From positions 8 to 64,007 of the forward strand of contig CAYUNT010000003.1 in the NCBI GenBank assembly GCA_964446285.1: a DNA stretch of 64,000 nt. The letters are read 5' to 3'. The notes below the pieces were generated by a model. The model worked only from the letters and a program-made list of their open reading frames with translations. It searched no databases and had not been told where the DNA came from. This DNA comes from an uncultured Candidatus Sumerlaeota bacterium (GTDB lineage Bacteria; Sumerlaeota; Sumerlaeia; SLMS01; CAYUNT01). Both the position numbers and the translations under genes were made by a program. This document shows positions 3,087 to 45,075 of this stretch, piece after piece (position 1 is the first letter of the stretch; the number at the start of each line of letters is the position of its first letter).

Positions 3087-3977
3087 TCAGGCAGAAGAGC
3101 CTCCACCACCGCTGTTGGGCAGGCCAAAACGCGCCGAGCGTATCGCCTGAAACACGCGGAGGAATTTGACCGTGGAAAGAACGTCGTGAACCCTCACAAC
3201 CTCCGCGCCCTCGATGGCGGCACTGGCGACGGCGGCCAGTGTGCCCTCGAGGCGCTCTGTGGGAGGTGCGCTATCGAGCAATTCGCCGATAAACCGTTTT
3301 CGCGATGGGGCGATGAGAAACGGGGCGTCGAGCGCCCGGGACATTGCGCCGCACGCGCGCAACAACGCCAGATTGTGTTCGAGCCGCTTTCCGAATCCGA
3401 TGCCGGGATCGAGAAGTATGCGTTCGCGGCCGATTCCCTGCTCGACGGCGAACTTCATTCGCTCACGCAGAAATTCGGTTACTTCGGCCACAACCTCTTT
3501 ATAGGCTGGATTGTTTTGCATCGTGCGCGGTTCGCCAAGCATGTGCATCAGGCAAACGGCCGCGCCACTCTCGCGCGCCACGGCCGCCATCTCCGGATCG
3601 CCGCGCAAAGCCGTGACGTCATTGACGATGCATGCGCCTTCCGCGAGGCACGCGCGCGCCACAGCGGCCTTGGATGTGTCGATGCTAATCGGCAGCGGAT
3701 AGCCGCCCGCCGCCAAGGCGCGAACCACAGGCAAAACGCGGTCGAGTTCGGCGGCGGCCTCGACGGGTTTCGCGCCTGGGCGCGTGGATTCGCCGCCGAC
3801 ATCGAGAATGTGCGCCCCTTCGCGCGCCAATTGCCATGCATGGTCGATCGCCGCGTTTGTGGCCAGATGCAGGCCGCCGTCGCTAAAAGAATCCGGCGTG
3901 ACGTTGAGAATGCCCATCACCAGGGGCGGTTCCAACTTCGCGGCGGCGGGATGCGGAATGGACCATCGTAGAGGCAT
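3087..3977 (-). CDS. folP: Dihydropteroate synthase
   Basis: MGILNVTPDSFSDGG, DVGGESTRPG, SIDTSK, DPGIGFGK, SRKRF, VRVHDV motifs. Confidence 0.97.
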   Translation of the reverse strand: MPLRWSIPHPAAAKLEPPLVMGILNVTPDSFSDGGLHLATNAAIDHAWQLAREGAHILDVGGESTRPGAKPVEAAAELDRVLPVVRALAAGGYPLPISIDTSKAAVARACLAEGACIVNDVTALRGDPEMAAVARESGAAVCLMHMLGEPRTMQNNPAYKEVVAEVTEFLRERMKFAVEQGIGRERILLDPGIGFGKRLEHNLALLRACGAMSRALDAPFLIAPSRKRFIGELLDSAPPTERLEGTLAAVASAAIEGAEVVRVHDVLSTVKFLRVFQAIRSARFGLPNSGGGGSSA

Positions 3978-4075
3978 GGAAAAAACTCCGGCGGGGGCGG
4001 CGGCTTGGGCATTCCCTGGCAGGGAATACCCCGGGCTGAAATGACTATACAGGATTATATGCCTTCTTTGGCAAT

Positions 4076-4112
4076 TGTCTTATAGGTCCCATAGGTCGTA
4101 TATGTCCCATAA
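4076..4112 (+). repeat. Stand-alone nonamer tract (CATAGGTCN)
   Basis: TATAGGTCCCATAGGTCGTATATGTCCCAT; similar tracts at 18139-18174, 25838-25885 and 39733-39765. Confidence 0.75.
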
Positions 4113-4142
4113 TTCAAAACGCAAAAGGCTTTTTGCAAGGCA

Positions 4143-5924
4143 TCAGTGGGTTTTTTCAACAAGAGCGGGCATTTGTCCCTCAATGATGTTTTCCATCGTT
4201 TCAGGCGTTTCAGCGGAAGTGCGTTCGAGGAGAGAGGCGGCCTCCTCGGGAGGCGTCGGAATGAGGCGCAGGATGCGATACTGGGAAGCATCGAGCGTGG
4301 CGAGTTCAGCGCGGAAAAGCGCCAAGTGGTCGCCCACGGCGGCGCGAGGCCATGCATAGCGCAAATGATTGGGCGGAAGACTTTGCGCCGGAAGCGCGTC
4401 GAATCCGCAGCGCTGCCAATCGCGAGGCGCCACGCGGCCCTGAAAAAGCAGCCGGTGCGGCGCATAAGGAACAAAGCCGCTGAGCCAAAACTGGCGGCGG
4501 GGCGAGGAATTTTCTTTTTGCGAAGGCAACACTGCGCCGTCATCAAGCAATAGCTGCGTGAGGCGTTGGGCCGGGGCTTCGAAATCAAAGGCCGATTCCG
4601 CAGGCCATAGGAAATAAAGTTTAGATGCGGTTTGAGAAAAAGAAGCGCCCGCAACAATGGTGCAGACAGCCACAATTAGAAAGCGGCGCAGCTGCCGTGG
4701 TTGAGACGCAGGGGCATTTTCCACGGAAAGACATGGAGTTGCCTTTGTTACGCTCAGACGCCGCAAAAGCCAGGCCGTCCCAATGCCCGCCGCCGCGCAC
4801 CAAGCGGGGATGCCCATGATCGAACGTAGCGCGTGCGGAATGCCGTCGTTGGTCATGGCGGCGCTGACCGGATAAAGCAGCAGCCAGGCAAGCAGGTGCA
4901 GGTCTGTGCCGCGCCGCCTCCGCGCAAGCCAGATAATTCCAGCCAGAATCATCGGCGCAGCGGCAAAGTGCATCAGTCCCTGAAAAGGCAAATGATGGCG
5001 CGGATTCGCGTCGCCGCTGAAGAACAGGAACATAGGCGAGAAGTGCGCCGCCCAGTTGCGCGTGAAAAGCCCCGTCGCGCCAAGGAGGCCCTGCGATTGG
5101 CCGAATACGGAGATGCGCTGAAACCGCGCGGCTCCGGCGGGCGACATCGCTTCGAGGAAGATCGGAACGGTCAGCGCGGCGGTGAGAATCGCGCCCGGGA
5201 TCGCCGCCCGCCAGCGAGGCTGCCATTGGCGGTAACGCAGGATGAGAAAAGCGAGTCCCCACAAAGGTAAAAACAGCCTGGCCACTTCATAGGCGTAGAG
5301 CGCCAGGACACAAAAGAATCCGGAAGCGGCCCACCACGCGGCGCGGGCGCTCCGCCACGATGTGCCGGTGCGCGAAACGGCAGCGGGCGAGCGGCCTTTC
5401 TCGAAACTCCACATTGCGAGCGCGAGCCATAGCGGTTCGGTGATCCCCTGCTGCGCCCATCGGCTGAAGACGACATGCCACGGGCATACCGCCATCCAAA
5501 ACGCGCCGCAAACGGCCGCGCGCCAGCCCCACACTCGCCGCATCCATGCGAAAAGCGCAAGCACGGCCAGCGTTCCCGCGAGCGCCGCCGGCAGCCGGGT
5601 CGTGGCCGCGCTCAGGCCAAACAACCCAACGCCGGGCGCCGCGAGATACTGGTAAATCGCCGACGTGCGCACGCCATAGACGTCGATGAAGGCGGGCAGG
5701 AATTCCGAAGGACGCACGCGCGCACCGGCCAGCATCGAGAGCCGCCCGTAGCGCCCCGTGTCCCAGAGTTCCCAGGCTGTATAACCCTTTTCGAGTTCAT
5801 CGCGAAACAGCGCCGCCGGAATCGTCCCGAGCGCGGGGAAACGCAGCAATGCCGCCAGCGCCAGAAGGAGCAGAGGCCAGGCGAGGCGCTGTTGAAAGCG
5901 GCGCAGCGAAAAAGCAGGTTTCAT
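4143..5924 (-). CDS. GT-C fold polytopic glycosyltransferase (GT39/ArnT/PMT-like)
   Basis: LRFPALG...RDE motif after TM1, RLPAALAG, W(H)VVFSR, many TM helices and a periplasmic C-terminal domain. Confidence 0.8.
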   Translation of the reverse strand: MKPAFSLRRFQQRLAWPLLLLALAALLRFPALGTIPAALFRDELEKGYTAWELWDTGRYGRLSMLAGARVRPSEFLPAFIDVYGVRTSAIYQYLAAPGVGLFGLSAATTRLPAALAGTLAVLALFAWMRRVWGWRAAVCGAFWMAVCPWHVVFSRWAQQGITEPLWLALAMWSFEKGRSPAAVSRTGTSWRSARAAWWAASGFFCVLALYAYEVARLFLPLWGLAFLILRYRQWQPRWRAAIPGAILTAALTVPIFLEAMSPAGAARFQRISVFGQSQGLLGATGLFTRNWAAHFSPMFLFFSGDANPRHHLPFQGLMHFAAAPMILAGIIWLARRRRGTDLHLLAWLLLYPVSAAMTNDGIPHALRSIMGIPAWCAAAGIGTAWLLRRLSVTKATPCLSVENAPASQPRQLRRFLIVAVCTIVAGASFSQTASKLYFLWPAESAFDFEAPAQRLTQLLLDDGAVLPSQKENSSPRRQFWLSGFVPYAPHRLLFQGRVAPRDWQRCGFDALPAQSLPPNHLRYAWPRAAVGDHLALFRAELATLDASQYRILRLIPTPPEEAASLLERTSAETPETMENIIEGQMPALVEKTH

Positions 5925-33789: not shown

Positions 33790-34052
33790 AAAATTGTGCC
33801 GCGGCGGAGCGCCCGCGCGGGCAGATTCCCGCGCGCGGAGCATGGTGCAATTCTGGGGTTGGATGTCAGAATAATCGTCTGCATTCCGCAGGGTTTCACA
33901 GTTCAACCGATTCACGAGAGCAATCCTCCAGAAGAATGCAATGGGCCTGGATAGAACGAAACGCCGCATCGGCATTTCGCAGGCGCCGAGCCGTTTGCAT
34001 CGCGCCGCAGCCTACAACGGCAATACGAATTTTCTGATCCGAAAAACTTGCC

Positions 34053-34155
34053 CAGGAGCAGTTCAAAGTTACGGGTGGCATGTGCATCTTTCCCGTGATT
34101 TCAGTGCCTTGGGCGTCTCGCCCCAAGATTTTTCCTGCACTTTGAACAGTTCCTG
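34053..34155. mobile_element. 103-bp MITE, copy 2
   Basis: TIRs CAGGAGCAGTTCAAAGT / ACTTTGAACAGTTCCTG. Flanked by the direct repeat AAAACTTGCC at 34043-34052 and 34156-34165. Right end is 30/31 identical to the reverse complement of 18278-18308. Confidence 0.85.
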
Positions 34156-34436
34156 AAAACTTGCCCCCATCGCGAAAGAATGGCATATTCTTCAGTGGCC
34201 GGAATTGAATAAACAGGAATATACAACCTTATTACGTTATGCATCCGCTCATGCAATATGCTTTATTTTCATGGCGCGTGAAAAGTGTCCCTCTTGTGTT
34301 CTTTTTGCTGGTGGCGCTGGCAGTTCGAGCCGAGAATTCCATGCAAGTATAAAGAGAAATCCAAATATCTGCCGGAATTTATGTGTGCGCAATCCTTTGG
34401 ATATGAATTATCGCGGATTGCAGGCGGAGTTGAGCC

Positions 34437-34500
34437 TGTGGATAATCTGTGAATAACCTGTGGATATCTTGTGATCGCACTGTGGAATTTTTGGGGATAA
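34437..34500 (-). promoter_or_regulatory. Array of six helically phased DnaA-box-like 9-mers (candidate oriC core)
   Basis: TGTGGATAA 34437, TGTGAATAA 34448, TGTGGATAT 34459, TGTGATCGC 34470 (weak), TGTGGAATT 34481 (weak), TGGGGATAA 34492: exact 11-bp period. Further boxes at 34605 (TGTGGAAAA) and 34711 (TTGTCCACA). Confidence 0.75.
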
Positions 34501-34683
34501 CTTTCGCGCGGAGATTCCATGTTGTTCGGGCAAAAGCTTGCTTTCGCTTGCTGGAGCCGCGAAATGGACGTGAAATAAGCGTCGATTATGCAATTCGCTC
34601 GTCTTGTGGAAAACTTTGGAAAGAAATACAAGAGATTGACGTTCGCTTTGTGTTCGTTTTTCAGAATATTTATGTTTCTTAAC

Positions 34684-34730
34684 ACTTTATATATACAGCG
34701 TCAAGGCTATTTGTCCACAATATGTAGTAT
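34684..34730. promoter_or_regulatory. Tandem NrdR boxes upstream of nrdJ
   Basis: CCACAATATGTAGTAT (34715-34730) matches acaCwAtATaTwGtgt at 13/16; ACTTTATATATACAGC (34684-34699) at 11/16; offset 31 bp. Confidence 0.65.
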
Positions 34731-35210
34731 TTATATGCAGGAATGTTCATGCATTTTTCTCCAAAATTAGGGTTGCAGATGTAGGGCCTTCTCGATAGGC
34801 TCTCTTTTGCTTTTGCGCTGGTAGAGACGTTTGTCCCAGCGCTTTTCCTGCTGTGAGATTAATTGCACAAGGTTAACGATATAAACCACAGGGATAGGGA
34901 CAAGGATTGATTCGAGGGGCTGGTATTCTATTGCCTGTGATCTGAATATCCAGATTTCCCTGACGTGTTCGTTCGTTTTTCCTGAGATAATTATAGTCCG
35001 CTTTCCCTGATATGTTTTGCCTGCAGAATAGGCGCCAGGTTGGCGCGAAGCCGCCTCAAGCGCCTGCAACATAAGATAAATCAGTCTTCCGGACGTCCGG
35101 GGTGGGTCAAGTTTCCTGGCCCTCAGCAGAACCGTTCCCATTCATTTTCTCCAGCTGCTGTTCCCGCGTCCCAGCTCCCGGCCCACACCTGTCCAAGGAG
35201 GTCCGTTCCC

Positions 35211-39709: not shown

Positions 39710-39827
39710 AATGTATCTCTTCATTGGCGAGCGTCCCATAGGTCTCATTCGTCCTACAGGTCCCATTTTCGCAACACGGCGGCAAGTATTCATTCCAGCA
39801 TAAGCAACATCCCAGTTGGATTTCACA

Positions 39828-40760
39828 ATGGCAAATAACTCTGGCAACTTCTCTGAAGGCGCATCCCACAGCGCGAATTCCGATTCCGGCCCGCTGGGAG
39901 CGCGCGAGGCCGCGGCTGCTGCAGCTGAGGCGGCGCCTGCGGCAGGCGCACTGCCTGAGGGCGCATTTGAAACGCTTGAAGAGGCGCTGCGAACCGCTGG
40001 GGGGATTCTGACCGAATACCGCGGACGCATTCGTAAAATTGAATATAAGAGCGAGATCAATCTCGTCACGGATGCGGATCACGCCGCGGAGAAGGCGATT
40101 CTTTCCATTATCCGCGGGCGGTTTCCGGGGCATTCGATTCTGGCGGAGGAATCGGGCGCGCTGGCGGAAAGCGGGGCGAGCGGCGCGACTGGAGCGAAGG
40201 ATGCGGCGAAGTGGCGCTGGGTGATCGATCCGCTCGACGGAACCACGAACTACGCGCACGGACTGGCAATTTTCAGCGTGTCGATTGCGTTGCAGCGCAA
40301 TGAAACCACTGTGGCGGGCGGCGTGTTTGCCCCGGCGCTGGGCGAGATTTTTCTGGCGCGGCGCGGCGGCGGGGCCACGATGAACGGCGCGCCCATCCGG
40401 GTGTCGGACGTGGCATCGCTCGAACGCGCTCTTGTGGTTTCTGGATTTCCTTACGACCGTCGCGAGCGCGTCGAGTATTACATGGAAATTTTCGGGCGGG
40501 TGCTCGCGCGAACGCAGGGCGTCATACGCTGGGGATCGGCGGCGATTGATTTGTGCATGGTGGCCTGCGGTCGCCTGGAAGCGTTTTGGGAACAAAACCT
40601 GCACCCGTGGGATACGGCAGCGGGGGAGTTGATCGTGTGCGAAGCGGGCGGGCGCGTGACGCGGTTTGACGGCTCGCCCTATTCGATTTTCGACAAGCAA
40701 ATCCTCGCCACGAACGGCCGTGTCCACGAGGCCATGCAGGCGCTGATGCCACGGATATAG
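39828..40760 (+). CDS. suhB: Inositol monophosphatase family protein
   Basis: LVTDAD, ILAEES, WVIDPLDGTTNYAHG, GSAAIDLC.VACG, WDTAAG motifs. Confidence 0.93.
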   Translation: MANNSGNFSEGASHSANSDSGPLGAREAAAAAAEAAPAAGALPEGAFETLEEALRTAGGILTEYRGRIRKIEYKSEINLVTDADHAAEKAILSIIRGRFPGHSILAEESGALAESGASGATGAKDAAKWRWVIDPLDGTTNYAHGLAIFSVSIALQRNETTVAGGVFAPALGEIFLARRGGGATMNGAPIRVSDVASLERALVVSGFPYDRRERVEYYMEIFGRVLARTQGVIRWGSAAIDLCMVACGRLEAFWEQNLHPWDTAAGELIVCEAGGRVTRFDGSPYSIFDKQILATNGRVHEAMQALMPRI

Positions 40761-40972
40761 TCTTATTTTCACGGTCTATTGCGGCCACACCACAGCTTCA
40801 ATAGTGTTCTGCTCCAGCATATTATGGCATATGTTTTATCTCTTGCATTAGGGGGACTCCTGCTATAGTTACTTCTCGACGTAGTTGTTAGAAGGTATTT
40901 ATTTTATCTTTTTAGGATTGATCCTTCACAATTCCCCAATTATGCGTATTTTGGGAGCGAATATCACTCACT

Positions 40973-42703
40973 GTGCATGGCTATGTCTCGGAGGCTAAAG
41001 TGAAACATTCTAATAAAGATATTACGGATCTCTTGGTGTCTCTTGATTCCACAGAAGGTATCGATTCTACGAAACTGGATGAGATAATTCATATTCTTGA
41101 GTCAACCATTCCCTCCGAGTTCCAGGAGATCTTTTCGGTCGTGGGGTCCGACGACGCAAAACCGTCATTCTGGGAGCTGCTAAAAAACCGCCTTATTTCA
41201 TCCGGTGTCTCTGACGAGAACTCGCAAAATGCATGCCGCTTGTTTTTTAAGCTATTGGCTCTCTTGCGTGTTGGCGAGGATCGTTATGAATCCATTCGAT
41301 TTGGAGGTATCGAAGTTCCTGACCAACTTGATCCTGAAGATCCTATAGAATATGCTCTTAGGCGTCTTGGCCATAAACATGATCAACAAAGTAGACGTGG
41401 AATGATCGATGAGATTAAGGCGGAGAAAGTTTATAAAATTCTCAGTATTATATGGAGTTCTTCCCCGGAATTCCACGACTGGTTGGTATCGTATCTTGGG
41501 TTAAGGATTGTACGGAATTTGATGCACTTTGACCTGTTCTATGTCATGCATGGCCGTATGCCTCGCTATCGTGAGACAAAGATATTAGCCTATCTGCTGA
41601 TGATCGTCGCCAGGGAGAGATTCCAACCTGCTATGCAGCTAGTTATGCTAGCCCATAGGTTGTACTATAGTATTATACACGACTGTCGCGTGGTGTTTGC
41701 TACAGCTCACAGCGTCGAGGATCTTGAGTCAACAATTAGGAAGACTCTCTATGATAACGCCCGCGCGCTATCTGCAATAGAACAAAGGATACCAGCAAAA
41801 AGCGATAACTACGCAAACGCTACGCTAAGAATCCTATATCGTTTCTTTCGCCAGTATATCGAGGATCTGGCAGAAGCTGGCAAGCTTCATGTCATTATTT
41901 GGAGTTTGCCAATGTTTGAGGAGATTAAAAGTGCTTTTCAATCGATAGAGCACTTTCAGAAGCGAGACTTTAGCGTTCTGATCATTGGCGAAACAGGCAC
42001 AGGTAAGGAGTCTATTGCCAAATTGTTTTTGAAGAGTATTGGAGCACCATATGTGGCCATCAACTGTGCTGGTGCATCGTGGAGCGTGGTTGTTCAAGAC
42101 CTATTTGGATATGGCCAGAATGCGGAGGCTCTCATTCGGAAATTAGGTGCGGTGTTCTTGGACGAAATCGAAAAATCTCATTTGGACACTCAGGGCGGGT
42201 TGCTGCGATTCCTTGATAAGCCTACGGGTGAGTACAGAGCTGCAGGCAAGATAACTCCCTTGCAATGGAACGGTTTGGTGATCGCCAGCGCTACGGAATT
42301 AATATACAATCGAATCATTGATGGGACATTCTTGCCGGACCTCTTCTGGCGTTTTGATATTCGAGTTCGCATCGCCCCTCTGCGGGAACATATGATTCAA
42401 TCGAAAATGGCAGAGAGCCTATTATCTCTCGCGTTAAGCATATCGCAGCGGAAATTCAATTTGCCCGGCAAGTTAATGCTATCTCCGCAGCAGTACGAAG
42501 CACTGCGACATTACACATGGCCAGGAAACCTTCGTGAATTGCTAGAAATGTGCGATGCGCTGACGGCAGAAGCCAAGAAGGATATCCAAAGATATACTGA
42601 TCGCGGAGAAGAGTATATTTTACAGGATGAAGCATTTGAAAAGGTATTCGGCCAATTTCAAGCTATAGCACGAAGATTGGGCATGTCTTTACATTGGGGA
42701 TAG
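40973..42703 (+). CDS. Sigma54-activator-type AAA+ ATPase lacking GAFTGA, with long unknown N-terminal domain
   Basis: GETGTGKE, INCA, DLFG, FLDEIE, PDLFWR, YTWPGNLREL motifs; possible degenerate HTH (AIARRLGMS). AT-rich coding sequence. Confidence 0.8.
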   Translation: MHGYVSEAKVKHSNKDITDLLVSLDSTEGIDSTKLDEIIHILESTIPSEFQEIFSVVGSDDAKPSFWELLKNRLISSGVSDENSQNACRLFFKLLALLRVGEDRYESIRFGGIEVPDQLDPEDPIEYALRRLGHKHDQQSRRGMIDEIKAEKVYKILSIIWSSSPEFHDWLVSYLGLRIVRNLMHFDLFYVMHGRMPRYRETKILAYLLMIVARERFQPAMQLVMLAHRLYYSIIHDCRVVFATAHSVEDLESTIRKTLYDNARALSAIEQRIPAKSDNYANATLRILYRFFRQYIEDLAEAGKLHVIIWSLPMFEEIKSAFQSIEHFQKRDFSVLIIGETGTGKESIAKLFLKSIGAPYVAINCAGASWSVVVQDLFGYGQNAEALIRKLGAVFLDEIEKSHLDTQGGLLRFLDKPTGEYRAAGKITPLQWNGLVIASATELIYNRIIDGTFLPDLFWRFDIRVRIAPLREHMIQSKMAESLLSLALSISQRKFNLPGKLMLSPQQYEALRHYTWPGNLRELLEMCDALTAEAKKDIQRYTDRGEEYILQDEAFEKVFGQFQAIARRLGMSLHWG

Positions 42704-42712
42704 CTGGCGATT

Positions 42713-43447
42713 ATGTCGGGGAAAAGTGGGAGCCCTCATATGAAGGAAGCAAATCCTAGGGACACTCTACTTGTTCGGGCTGCGGAGAGGTTTTCGGAAT
42801 CCAACTGGGCTCCTCTTGTCCCATTGCTTCCCCATATCGGAGGTTCGATCGCCTTTTTTCTTTCGCAAACAGCAAATAAGCACTGGCGGGAACGGATTGA
42901 AAGTCTATTTCATGAGATGGGGCTTCGCATGAAAGAGGTGGATGCTTCAAAGATAGATAAAGAGTATATAAACAGTGAAGAGTTTGAGTCACTAATCGTA
43001 AGAACAATTCGCATGCTTGAATGGCAACACGAGAAAGAAAAAATCCAAATATTTGCTTCCATCCTTAACGGAGTTGCTCTTATACAACATTCTGCAGATA
43101 TTCAGAAGCAGCGATACATCCGCTTGGTTGATCAGATGTCAATAACCCATATTGCCATCCTAAGGACTATGGCAAAAGGAATGCTTGGTTTCGGGCCTTC
43201 CTCGCAACCTACTGGAATAGTGATTCTTACCGCCGACGAAATCGCAAGAGATCTCGACCTTGATCGTGTGACTGTTGAGGCATTTTGTGCCGACCTAATG
43301 GCCAACGGTATCTTATATGACCCTCAACTGGGAATCGCTGACTATAAGCGTGGTAGCTATGCATTACATAGCAGTGCTATGACATTCATACAATTTGTTA
43401 TGGATGCGCTGAAAAATGACAATGAAGGTGAGTCGGGGAGTCTATGA
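42713..43447 (+). CDS. Hypothetical protein, helical N-domain + C-terminal winged-helix (Abi-alpha/DUF4393-like by eye)
   Basis: 244-aa ORF starting 9 nt after the AAA gene, with the same low GC; ADEIARDLDLDRVTVEAFCADL..NGIL looks wHTH-like. Confidence 0.6.
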   Translation: MSGKSGSPHMKEANPRDTLLVRAAERFSESNWAPLVPLLPHIGGSIAFFLSQTANKHWRERIESLFHEMGLRMKEVDASKIDKEYINSEEFESLIVRTIRMLEWQHEKEKIQIFASILNGVALIQHSADIQKQRYIRLVDQMSITHIAILRTMAKGMLGFGPSSQPTGIVILTADEIARDLDLDRVTVEAFCADLMANGILYDPQLGIADYKRGSYALHSSAMTFIQFVMDALKNDNEGESGSL

Positions 43448-43608
43448 GGAACATAGGCTTTCCTTTTCATGTGGGAATATACGTTTCCATTTAGAGACAG
43501 AAAGAGTATCGGAGCAAAATAAGCAATATTGAAAGCAATATGGGCTGAAAAAATCGTAACGTACTACGACATGCGCAAAATCAAGTCCTTGCCAAATTCC
43601 TGACCGGA

Positions 43609-45075
43609 TCATCCGAACAGGCGGCGGAGTTCGTCGCGTTTGGCTTCGCGGAAAAGCAGAAGGAAAATTCCGTAAGCCAGGGCGCCCGCGCCAATAATGC
43701 AAAACAAGTCGATCATGGGCCTGCCAGTGATGCGCACTTTTGCTATGGCAAAAACCAGCGCACCCATCGCCGCCCCAGCGCCGAGCGTTCGCACTAGTGT
43801 GGCGAAGGGGTATTTCCATTTCAGATAATGGCGCGAAATCAGGATGAGCGTGATGGCCAGGAACACGTAGGCGACCAGGCGCGAGGCGATGGCCGCTTCG
43901 TATCCAAAATAGGGAACGGCCAGTATGTTGATGAGGATGTTGATCGCGCCCGCGCCCAAATAGACTACGGCCAGAGTGGATGTTTTTTGCTGGATCAGCA
44001 TCACATATTGATAAATATGCTGTGTGCCGAAAATAACGGCCCCGAGCGCGGCCCAGGGCAGAATGATATAGCCTGAATGATACTCCGGCCCGGTAAGGGC
44101 ATTCGTGACTGGCCGCGCCAGGATGGCCAGTCCGATGGCGGAGGGAATGCAGACGATCAGGAAGATGCGCGTTACATTGCTGAGGAAGTGGCGGGTTTTT
44201 TCCGGGCCATCCATTTCCCATATTCGCAGAACGAGCGGAGCGGAGGCGGCCATCAACAGCGAAGAGAGCATCCGAATCGAGCGCTCGGAAATCCCGGAGC
44301 ACGCCGAGTAGATTCCGACTTCGGCGGAGCCGCGGAAATGCTCGATGATAAAACGGTCGGAAAGGCTCAGCGCCCAGAGTTCCAAGTTTCCCAGGACTAC
44401 GGGGAGGCCGAAAAGAAGAACTTTTCGCGTGAGATCGGGCGGCAGAGAAGAACGCGCCGCGCCGGCGCTGGGCGCAATGTCGCAGCCCCGGAGATTGTTT
44501 AGAGTCATCAAGGGAATCACAAGGGCCAGGGCTGCCATCGCGCCCCACAAAAAGGCATCGATGCCGCTGCGATATGCGTGAATCAGGCCCAGCCCTATAA
44601 CGACAGCGGCGGCGGCGTTCCAGACGACGCAAGCGGAGTAGCGGACAATCTGCCTGCGGGCGCGCATGGTGTTTGTGTTAAGATCAAAGAAGCATTGCAG
44701 AAGAAAAACCGCCATTCCGATCTGCATGAGAAAAATCTGATGGCCATCGTAAAACCGTCTTGCGACCAGCAATCCCAAGCCATAGACGGCGCAAAGGATG
44801 AGAACGGACATGGCCGCCATTCTGAACATCTGCAAGACAAACGCCCGCGCCTTTCCCTCTTTTTCAAAAGCAGGGTAAAAGCGCAAAACGGACATGGGCG
44901 CCCAGCCATTGAGCGTCGCAAAGACGTTCAGCGTCGTCATGGCAAGGATATAATTTCCGTATTCCGCCGGGGGAAAAATCGTCGTAATGATGGGGATGCT
45001 GATAAAGCTGACCAGCGCGGGAGCCAATTGCGCCGGCAGGTATTTGGCCACATCCTTTAGGAATTCGCGCGTCAT
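43609..45075 (-). CDS. Polysaccharide/oligosaccharide flippase (Wzx/MOP family)
   Basis: Many TM helices; EYGNY, SDRFIIEHF.G.AEVGIYS, NILAVPYFG motifs. Confidence 0.88.
   Translation of the reverse strand: MTREFLKDVAKYLPAQLAPALVSFISIPIITTIFPPAEYGNYILAMTTLNVFATLNGWAPMSVLRFYPAFEKEGKARAFVLQMFRMAAMSVLILCAVYGLGLLVARRFYDGHQIFLMQIGMAVFLLQCFFDLNTNTMRARRQIVRYSACVVWNAAAAVVIGLGLIHAYRSGIDAFLWGAMAALALVIPLMTLNNLRGCDIAPSAGAARSSLPPDLTRKVLLFGLPVVLGNLELWALSLSDRFIIEHFRGSAEVGIYSACSGISERSIRMLSSLLMAASAPLVLRIWEMDGPEKTRHFLSNVTRIFLIVCIPSAIGLAILARPVTNALTGPEYHSGYIILPWAALGAVIFGTQHIYQYVMLIQQKTSTLAVVYLGAGAINILINILAVPYFGYEAAIASRLVAYVFLAITLILISRHYLKWKYPFATLVRTLGAGAAMGALVFAIAKVRITGRPMIDLFCIIGAGALAYGIFLLLFREAKRDELRRLFG

Follow-up and report, generated by a model that had tools for sequence, protein, structure and literature searches.

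The window analysed here is a stretch of 64,000 nucleotides from an uncultured Candidatus Sumerlaeota bacterium (GenBank assembly GCA_964446285.1, contig CAYUNT010000003.1, positions 8 to 64,007), and the element under study is a two-gene cassette, ORF1 and ORF2, located on a low-GC island between suhB and a gene encoding a Wzx-type flippase. ORF1 (40973..42703, plus strand; 576 amino acids (aa) from GTG 40973) encodes an AAA+ ATPase of the type found in bacterial enhancer-binding proteins (bEBPs), in which the GAFTGA motif and the helix-turn-helix (HTH) domain are both missing, and ORF2 (42713..43447, plus strand; 244 aa from ATG 42713) encodes a protein that appears to be an outlier of the Abi_alpha superfamily, with a C-terminal winged helix. 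For ORF1, a start at GTG 41000 (567 aa), preceded by the Shine-Dalgarno sequence GGAGG at 40990-40994 and coinciding with the database gene call, is more likely, and ORF2 perhaps starts at ATG 42740 (235 aa), which is also the start in the database gene call and has a GGGAG 7 nt upstream. The two genes are co-oriented, as stated in the original prediction, and the gap of 9 nt given there holds as read from ATG 42713 but becomes 36 nt if ORF2 starts at ATG 42740. Ahead of GTG 41000 there is an AT-rich leader (40761..40999, plus strand, 39% GC), within which a sigma-70-like site (TTCACA-16-TATTTT) can be read at 40925-40952 on the plus strand, the number of promoter-like matches being not above chance. 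A terminator-like hairpin of 12 pairs followed by a T-run (43435..43473, plus strand) overlaps the ORF2 stop and is likely to mark the end of a two-gene transcript.

The island itself (40761..43608, 2848 bp, not assigned to a strand) extends from the suhB stop to the flippase stop and has a GC content of 44.3%, that is, 0.443 against a genome mean of 0.597 (standard deviation 0.026; z = -6.0), and none of the 5451 intervals of 2.8 kb in the 4.67-Mb assembly is as low. GC content steps from ~0.62 to ~0.45 directly past the suhB stop (40760) and rises again at the flippase stop (43609). The hand counts behind the sharp drop noted earlier after suhB (21/60 in 41041-41100, 21/60 in 42961-43020 and 45/60 in 40321-40380) were exact on recount. 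Consistent with this, GC content at third codon positions (GC3) is 0.46 in ORF1 and 0.42 in ORF2, versus 0.69-0.71 in suhB, the flippase gene, ppiD and an aldo-keto reductase gene. The cassette is flanked in the window by housekeeping genes, with suhB (39816-40760; Inositol_P, 2.5e-66) on the left and the flippase gene (43609-45075, minus strand, convergent with the cassette; GC 0.564, slightly low) on the right. No integrase, tRNA or Rfam RNA was found at the island among the window genes and in the RNA scans, and the flanking direct or inverted repeats detected there were short, chance-level matches only, in agreement with the earlier remark that neither an integrase nor a flanking direct repeat is visible.

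The segment was recovered without a single base difference, between the same neighbours, in three JGI metagenome contigs from other samples, and therefore the island is not an assembly artefact and its junctions are real. Every contig with an identical flippase gene also has an identical cassette. The 24 nearest genomes are order-level relatives only, and suhB and ppiD lie there on separate contigs; a flippase homologue (33% identity) was detected in one of these 24 relatives, so that the cassette may lie on the border of a variable region for surface polysaccharides. Homologous pairs on other contigs match the GC content of their surroundings. Because the anomaly is seen in the window copy only, this copy must have arrived recently, its donor having ~45% GC. 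On compositional grounds we thus regard 40761-43608 as a horizontally acquired unit, as had been supposed from the insertion of a low-GC gene pair without visible mobility genes, and the transferred unit contains ORF1 and ORF2 and no other genes.

The AAA+ module of ORF1 (41909..42592, plus strand; aa 313-540) consists of a Sigma54_activat core (PF00158, aa 317-462, 3.4e-21, 76 bits, with the cut-off at 20.2) and then an AAA lid (AAA_lid_14, aa 502-537), and the predicted structure of ORF1 (pLDDT 78) superposes in Foldseek on the AAA+ domains of NtrC1, PspF, FleQ and NifA, with E values down to 3e-10 and TMt of at most 0.73. Kept and lost features were read from an alignment with three canonical sigma-54 activators. 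Among the features kept, all on the plus strand, there are the Walker A motif GETGTGKE (41987..42010, aa 339-346), shared without variation by all family members and the canonical bEBPs, an invariant Walker B L-D-E (42158..42166, aa 396-398), the invariant R460 in DLFWRFD (42350..42352) at the putative R-finger position, FWRFD being a signature of the ORF1 family, and the nearly invariant R521 in WPGNLRE (42533..42535) at the sensor II position. With Walker A, Walker B, R460 and sensor II kept, the AAA+ ATPase is apparently competent. At the L1-loop position (42107..42151, plus strand; aa 379-393, YGQNAEALIRKLGAV), GAFTGA is absent and the segment falls ~10 residues short of its length in canonical bEBPs, and the same absence, with an LFG-to-FLDE segment shortened by ~10 residues, was found in 8/8 members of the ORF1 family and in the family remnant at locus L061 described below. 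Whereas the aligned canonical bEBPs run on into an HTH, the ORF1 family stops ~35 aa past the lid, and no match to PF02954 (Fis-type HTH) was found in ORF1; a truncated Fis HTH at its C-terminus (IARRLGMS...) was considered and rejected, given that all homologues end there without an HTH. As judged from this alignment, ORF1 descends from bacterial enhancer-binding proteins, having lost the GAFTGA loop, through which sigma-54 is contacted, and the DNA-binding HTH. The original call of an AAA+ ATPase is thereby narrowed to a bEBP-type ATPase without GAFTGA and HTH, which brings forward a regulatory alternative that the original prediction had named only in its title.

Upstream of this module, the N-terminal domain of ORF1 (40973..41908, plus strand; aa 1-312, ~310 aa) is predicted to be all-helical except for one small beta-hairpin, with an AF2 pLDDT of about 75-90 over most of its length. 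A scan of all seven N-domains of the family at E <= 1 against Pfam, NCBIfam, PHROG and PDB sequences gave no match, nor was there a match to this domain in the plasmid collection, and the fold search with the whole ORF1 model returned AAA+ domains only. The invariant polar residues of this domain, which include E126, H134 and H136 in LGHxH, E147, R178, E201, K203, R214 and H306, could mark a ligand or catalytic site. Part of them fall within an invariant E-x5-L-G-H-x-H-x6-G-x3-E pattern (window 41346-41413, aa 126-147), carried by a helix/beta-hairpin/helix element that could be a metal or ligand site without known counterpart. We propose that the N-domain is a sensor or regulatory domain.

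The ORF1 family is very rare, since single-sequence and profile queries alike retrieved 8 protein clusters among 5.8 billion. No member was found in 40 relatives of the source genome, in viral contigs (profile scans) or in plasmids, and a scan of 185,579 species genomes with FLxDLFWRFD gave 9 matches, none of them with tblastn similarity to ORF1 or ORF2.

For ORF2, a profile built from the protein and three close homologues retrieved 2039 cluster representatives at E <= 1e-3 and 479 at <= 1e-10, with proteins retrieved at E values of 1e-16 to 1e-23; many of the 2039 matches cover the helical domain only. PF14337 is matched by 22 of the 65 top relatives (best E 5.6e-9), and one of the relatives, P0159, reaches 32.3 bits, above the gathering score. 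Because 22/65 relatives match this model and P0159 passes its gathering score, ORF2 is taken to be an outlying member of the Abi_alpha superfamily, a link that by sequence comparison runs through the relatives only. The domain calls of the original prediction therefore stand for the AAA+ protein and, by way of relatives, for the Abi-alpha/winged-HTH protein, but ORF2 itself lies below the Pfam cut-off. No PADLOC match at E <= 1 and no PHROG match were found for ORF2, and a sub-threshold match to DUF4007 was seen at E 0.047. Against viral contigs ORF2 gave no match, against phage genomes one weak partial match only, and against the phage and plasmid collections weak partial matches only.

The part of ORF2 shared with the Abi_alpha relatives is its helical domain (42800..43192, plus strand; aa ~30-160), and P40, G43, E90 and K110 are near-invariant across the 65 relatives. 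An AF2 model computed with the 65 sequences (pLDDT 87, pTM 0.78, with the helical domain above 90) consists of the helical domain (aa ~43-158) followed by a helix-helix-wing-helix arrangement (aa 174-237), which corresponds to a MarR/PadR-like C-terminal winged helix-turn-helix (43220..43423, plus strand; aa ~170-237). Foldseek matches of this C-terminus include MarR, MepR, CodY-C and SmtB at modest values (E 7e-3 to 5e-2, TMt 0.5-0.65); a PDB sequence search with ORF2 returned PadR-like matches only, all weak (E ~0.4), and a BFVD fold search returned winged-HTH matches only. The modelled winged helix probably binds nucleic acid.

The two genes occur together beyond the window. Adjacency of ORF1 and ORF2, in this order and with conserved strand, was found in five diverged lineages, with gaps ranging from an 8-nt overlap to 66 nt. 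ORF1 is 43% and ORF2 41% identical in the loci L010/L011/L031, where the gap is 66 nt, and 38% and 34% in L020/L032/L047-49, where the genes overlap by 8 nt, ORF2 being 34-44% identical where compared. At L061 (GCA_015233015.1, JADFYO010000007.1), an AAA+ remnant of the ORF1 family, 245 aa long, 45-58% identical and truncated at its 5' end, lacks GAFTGA, retains DLFWRFD and ends 10 nt before P0127. In the same region (L061:1-1324), an IS66-family transposase gene ends directly before the AAA+ part of this ORF1 homologue, so that the N-domain is gone and the ORF2-like gene is intact, and from its sequence we read the locus as a natural 'N-domain deletion' allele. At L060, a 35-aa end of an ORF1-type gene lies 22 nt before P0125 and aligns with the C-terminal VPxxVFxxVxxxxxYF motif (z 5-6), a score reached by 0/500 shuffles for four family members. 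Because both families are very rare (for ORF1, the 8 clusters mentioned above), chance adjacency is negligible. In the close ORF2 clade, L021 is the one locus that lacks ORF1 with upstream sequence long enough to show it; L014 is too short.

Further ORF1 homologues are accompanied by different proteins: a helical one of 280 aa at L012, a divergent HARE-HTH protein at L016 and, at L018 and L019, a 221-226-aa protein that is 50% identical between the two loci and encoded directly upstream of the ORF1 homologues, next to miaA (L018:3747-4427, L019:2810-3475). The last of these combines two transmembrane helices at its N-terminus with a beta-rich C-terminal part, and is a possible alternative effector. 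We also considered whether the L018 (226 aa), L019 (221 aa), L012 (280 aa) and L016 proteins are hidden Abi_alpha relatives, and rejected it (hmmsearch E > 0.5). As far as can be read from these loci, the ATPase is the constant element, having taken on an Abi_alpha-like partner in one clade and different small proteins in other loci.

Genes of defence type are found around homologous loci and around ORF2 relatives, in line with the original suggestion of a defence module. On the 433-kb contig of L047, the company of the pair comprises two genes with full-length matches to PDC-S11 (4.5e-118 and 1.7e-82; L047:1767-2870 and 3659-4762), a NucS_C-like nuclease domain, DUF5677, an AAA_16 protein of 818 aa that has a MerR-type HTH, and a tyrosine integrase within 8 kb. 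At L012, a full-length PDC-S54 match (1.4e-146, L012:3933-5174) is next to the ORF1 homologue, together with an SMC-like ATPase, a DDE transposase, methyltransferases and a 235-aa neighbour in which an HNH-like motif was recognised by eye; PDC-S54 is not mentioned in the literature searched. A Fic gene adjoins the L061 locus, where IS66 is present. Beside stand-alone ORF2 relatives there are a Type ISP restriction-modification (R-M) enzyme (1.4e-82), a DpnII restriction endonuclease, DUF3644/EC042_2821 and an SMC-like ATPase, and one such setting combines an N6_N4 methylase, a ResIII helicase and an AbiEi-like gene.

The source genome contains six other low-GC islands, two of which match PADLOC models. 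One (G000 C40:22874-26692, L055; GC 0.49) encodes a 1272-aa SIR2 fusion, whose SIR2-like domain (TTNFD...KLHGG) matches the PADLOC models Aga_SIR2, pAgo and PDC-S65 at about 1e-12 and precedes a long region that is helical or TPR-like, and this gene is, from its domain matches, a probable defence gene. Another (G000 C107:8714-10186, L057; GC 0.45) encodes a 490-aa protein that matches PADLOC DitA nearly full length (3.7e-68). Foreign cargo without a PADLOC match was found in G000 C81:14610-18140 (L056), encoding a 1176-aa protein, and in G000 C227:2466-5497 (L058, L059), encoding a pair of 544 and 408 aa, both with GC in the 0.46-0.50 range. Within the window, a second low-GC stretch (0.44) is located at 34001-35000, in a long intergenic region upstream of a class II ribonucleotide reductase gene.

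From these data we favour, by a modest balance of probability, the interpretation that the pair is a self-contained, horizontally acquired anti-phage module of the abortive-infection type. This interpretation is based on an island that is foreign and compact, with its own leader and hairpin and without cargo genes to regulate; on an ORF1-to-ORF2 adjacency with tight spacing that recurs in five lineages of rare families; on the placement of ORF2 in the Abi_alpha superfamily and the defence-type neighbourhoods of homologues; on the other small partners of ORF1 homologues, which suggest a pattern of constant NTPase and variable effector; and on the PADLOC matches in two further low-GC islands, out of six, elsewhere in the source genome. 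In such a module, ORF1 would be a nucleotide-driven ring or switch, its N-domain would sense an infection cue, and it would control its operon partner ORF2, which in turn would act as the effector, or as a nucleic-acid-binding partner, and halt phage production by sacrificing the infected cell, by analogy with the Abi-alpha of Enterococcus faecalis. The roles of switch and effector are assigned in this way because ORF1 is constant with variable companions and because ORF2-like proteins can stand alone. What the sequences show directly is the domain composition, the loss of the sigma-54-contacting and DNA-binding parts, the foreign origin, the repeated adjacency and the defence-type surroundings of homologues, whereas we infer oligomerisation, an interaction between ORF1 and ORF2, the sensing and killing roles and a phage phenotype. 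A bolder claim, that the ORF1 family is the first AAA+ of the enhancer-binding-protein clade outside transcription, a sigma-54-independent switch with a new sensor domain that arms interchangeable effectors (the Abi-alpha-like winged-helix protein in five lineages, the two-transmembrane-helix protein or further small proteins in others) and represents a new, very rare anti-phage class, is offered as a tentative one, which we hold to be possible rather than probable.

Several observations weigh against an anti-phage role. The match of ORF2 itself to Abi_alpha (PF14337; aa 74-156, E 0.033) reaches only 14.6 bits against a gathering score of 29, and no named PADLOC system matches the pair, ORF2 giving no match and ORF1 generic AAA+ models only, just as no named system had been recognised in the original prediction. 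Co-occurrence of the homologues, which that prediction had put forward as a check, is borne out in five lineages but is facultative, since about half of the ORF1 homologues (L012, L016, L018/L019) are without ORF2 and paired otherwise, so that pairing is not obligate; most ORF2 relatives stand alone without ORF1, and in 14 more distant ORF2-like loci (L033-L046) a bEBP-type AAA+ gene is absent. With about ten lineages, the sample is small. Moreover, PDC models are candidates and not validated systems, and therefore the support from neighbourhoods is guilt by association, and in the window itself the neighbours of the cassette are housekeeping genes and not a defence island. Finally, a winged HTH protein beside a bEBP-derived ATPase also fits a split transcription regulator.

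The latter possibility, a sigma-54-independent regulator split over two genes on mobile DNA, in which the winged helix of ORF2 would bind DNA in trans for ORF1 and the pair would repress or activate promoters, is the strongest of the alternatives, and we consider it unlikely. bEBP relatives without GAFTGA, such as TyrR, HupR and the NtrC of Rhodobacter capsulatus, act with sigma-70, the closest relatives of ORF1 by both sequence and fold are transcription activators, and ORF2, tightly linked to ORF1, ends in a MarR/PadR-like winged HTH; the divergent HARE-HTH protein beside the L016 homologue fits the same idea. However, the transferred unit holds no further gene that could be regulated, the ORF1 family never has an HTH of its own, one of the partners found with ORF1 homologues is a membrane protein without a DNA-binding domain, and the wider ORF2 family sits in R-M/Abi islands and not by metabolic operons.

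Less probable still is a toxin-antitoxin-like addiction module, or another selfish maintenance module, in which a toxic ORF2 would be restrained by ORF1 without any anti-phage role. The compact two-gene operon of foreign origin and the association of homologues with an integrase, insertion sequences and Fic would suit it, and Abi-alpha does kill cells (PMC6356687), but ORF1 (567 aa) is far larger than usual antitoxins and the cassette is chromosomal, with no mobile element left to stabilise. Such an explanation also overlaps with the anti-phage interpretation, since many toxin-antitoxin-like modules are in practice abortive-infection systems.

That two unrelated genes merely happen to be neighbours in regions that are variable or given to defence, and are not functionally coupled, seems to us very improbable: each family is also found without the other, yet five lineages of two families, both very rare, share gene order and strand and have gaps of -8 to 66 nt, and the identities of the two proteins co-diverge, from 43%/41% to 38%/34%. 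An ordinary sigma-54-dependent enhancer-binding activator, as suggested by the PF00158 match at 3.4e-21, by the presence of rpoN in the genome and by the name given to homologues in NCBI and JGI ('sigma-54 factor interaction domain-containing protein'), is effectively refuted by the missing loop, GAFTGA being absent in every member, and is further opposed by the lack of an HTH, by NCBIfam equivalog scores of at most 103 bits, all far below cut-offs of 440-1400, and by a scan for TGGCAC-N5-TTGCW that gave 16 matches in the window against 32 expected, with no such -24/-12 promoter upstream of the cassette or its neighbours.

Both parent superfamilies and the logic of an NTPase plus an effector are already known. 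Without precedent in PADLOC and in the literature searched are a bEBP-clade AAA+ protein lacking GAFTGA and HTH, the 310-aa N-domain, and the pairing of a bEBP-type AAA+ protein with an Abi_alpha-like protein; no defence system with an AAA+ of the enhancer-binding-protein clade was found in PADLOC or in literature searches, and the latter yielded no paper in which AAA+ proteins without GAFTGA are linked to phage defence. Should the pair prove to be active against phages, it would add a new architecture to the repertoire of NTPase-plus-effector systems, one in which the AAA+ engine of sigma-54 activators, stripped of its contacts with sigma-54 and DNA, is reused for immunity; it would also give the Abi-alpha superfamily, with its at least 2000 cluster representatives, a first regulatory partner and make the 310-aa domain without known relative a candidate infection sensor. 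The ecological weight of the family is limited by its extreme rarity, with about ten lineages among billions of proteins. As the cassette is self-contained, spans 2.85 kb and offers clear point-mutant controls (K345A and E398Q), the hypothesis is cheap to test.

Compared with known systems, ORF1 shares with the bEBPs NtrC1, PspF and FleQ (PF00158) the GETGTGKE motif, the DE of Walker B, the Arg of DLxxRxx, the WPGNxRE sensor II and the lid, and differs from them by the absence of the GAFTGA L1 loop and of the Fis-type HTH, by a novel 310-aa helical domain in place of a receiver, GAF, PAS, V4R or CARF N-domain, by the lack of a sigma-54 promoter nearby, and by its location on a foreign island with an Abi-like partner. 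The best PADLOC matches of ORF1 (3.8e-27) are the RtcR/PspF-like CARF-AAA-HTH regulators (PDLC01993-01995), which have a bEBP-type AAA+ domain; the alignment, as with the NCBIfam RtcR models, covers the AAA+ part only (profile positions 174-396), and unlike these regulators ORF1 has no detected CARF domain or HTH, and the window has no RtcAB or CRISPR neighbours. Abi-alpha (EF2833, prophage 6 of E. faecalis V583) confers abortive infection as a single gene, with premature lysis, by a mechanism that is unknown (PMC6356687). ORF2 is similar in size (235-244 versus 272 aa) and is homologous to it (PF14337, Abi_alpha/DUF4393) through intermediates; like Abi-alpha it is mobile, with relatives in defence islands, but it scores below the gathering score, is not prophage-borne and is paired with an AAA+ gene, whereas Abi-alpha acts alone. 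Two-gene defence modules of an NTPase and an effector exist, among them IetAS and other AAA+/effector pairs. No sequence relationship with IetAS-type modules was found, and the resemblance of the cassette to them lies in its layout, an operon in which a larger ATPase precedes a small partner, as well as in horizontal transfer, patchy distribution and variable partners.

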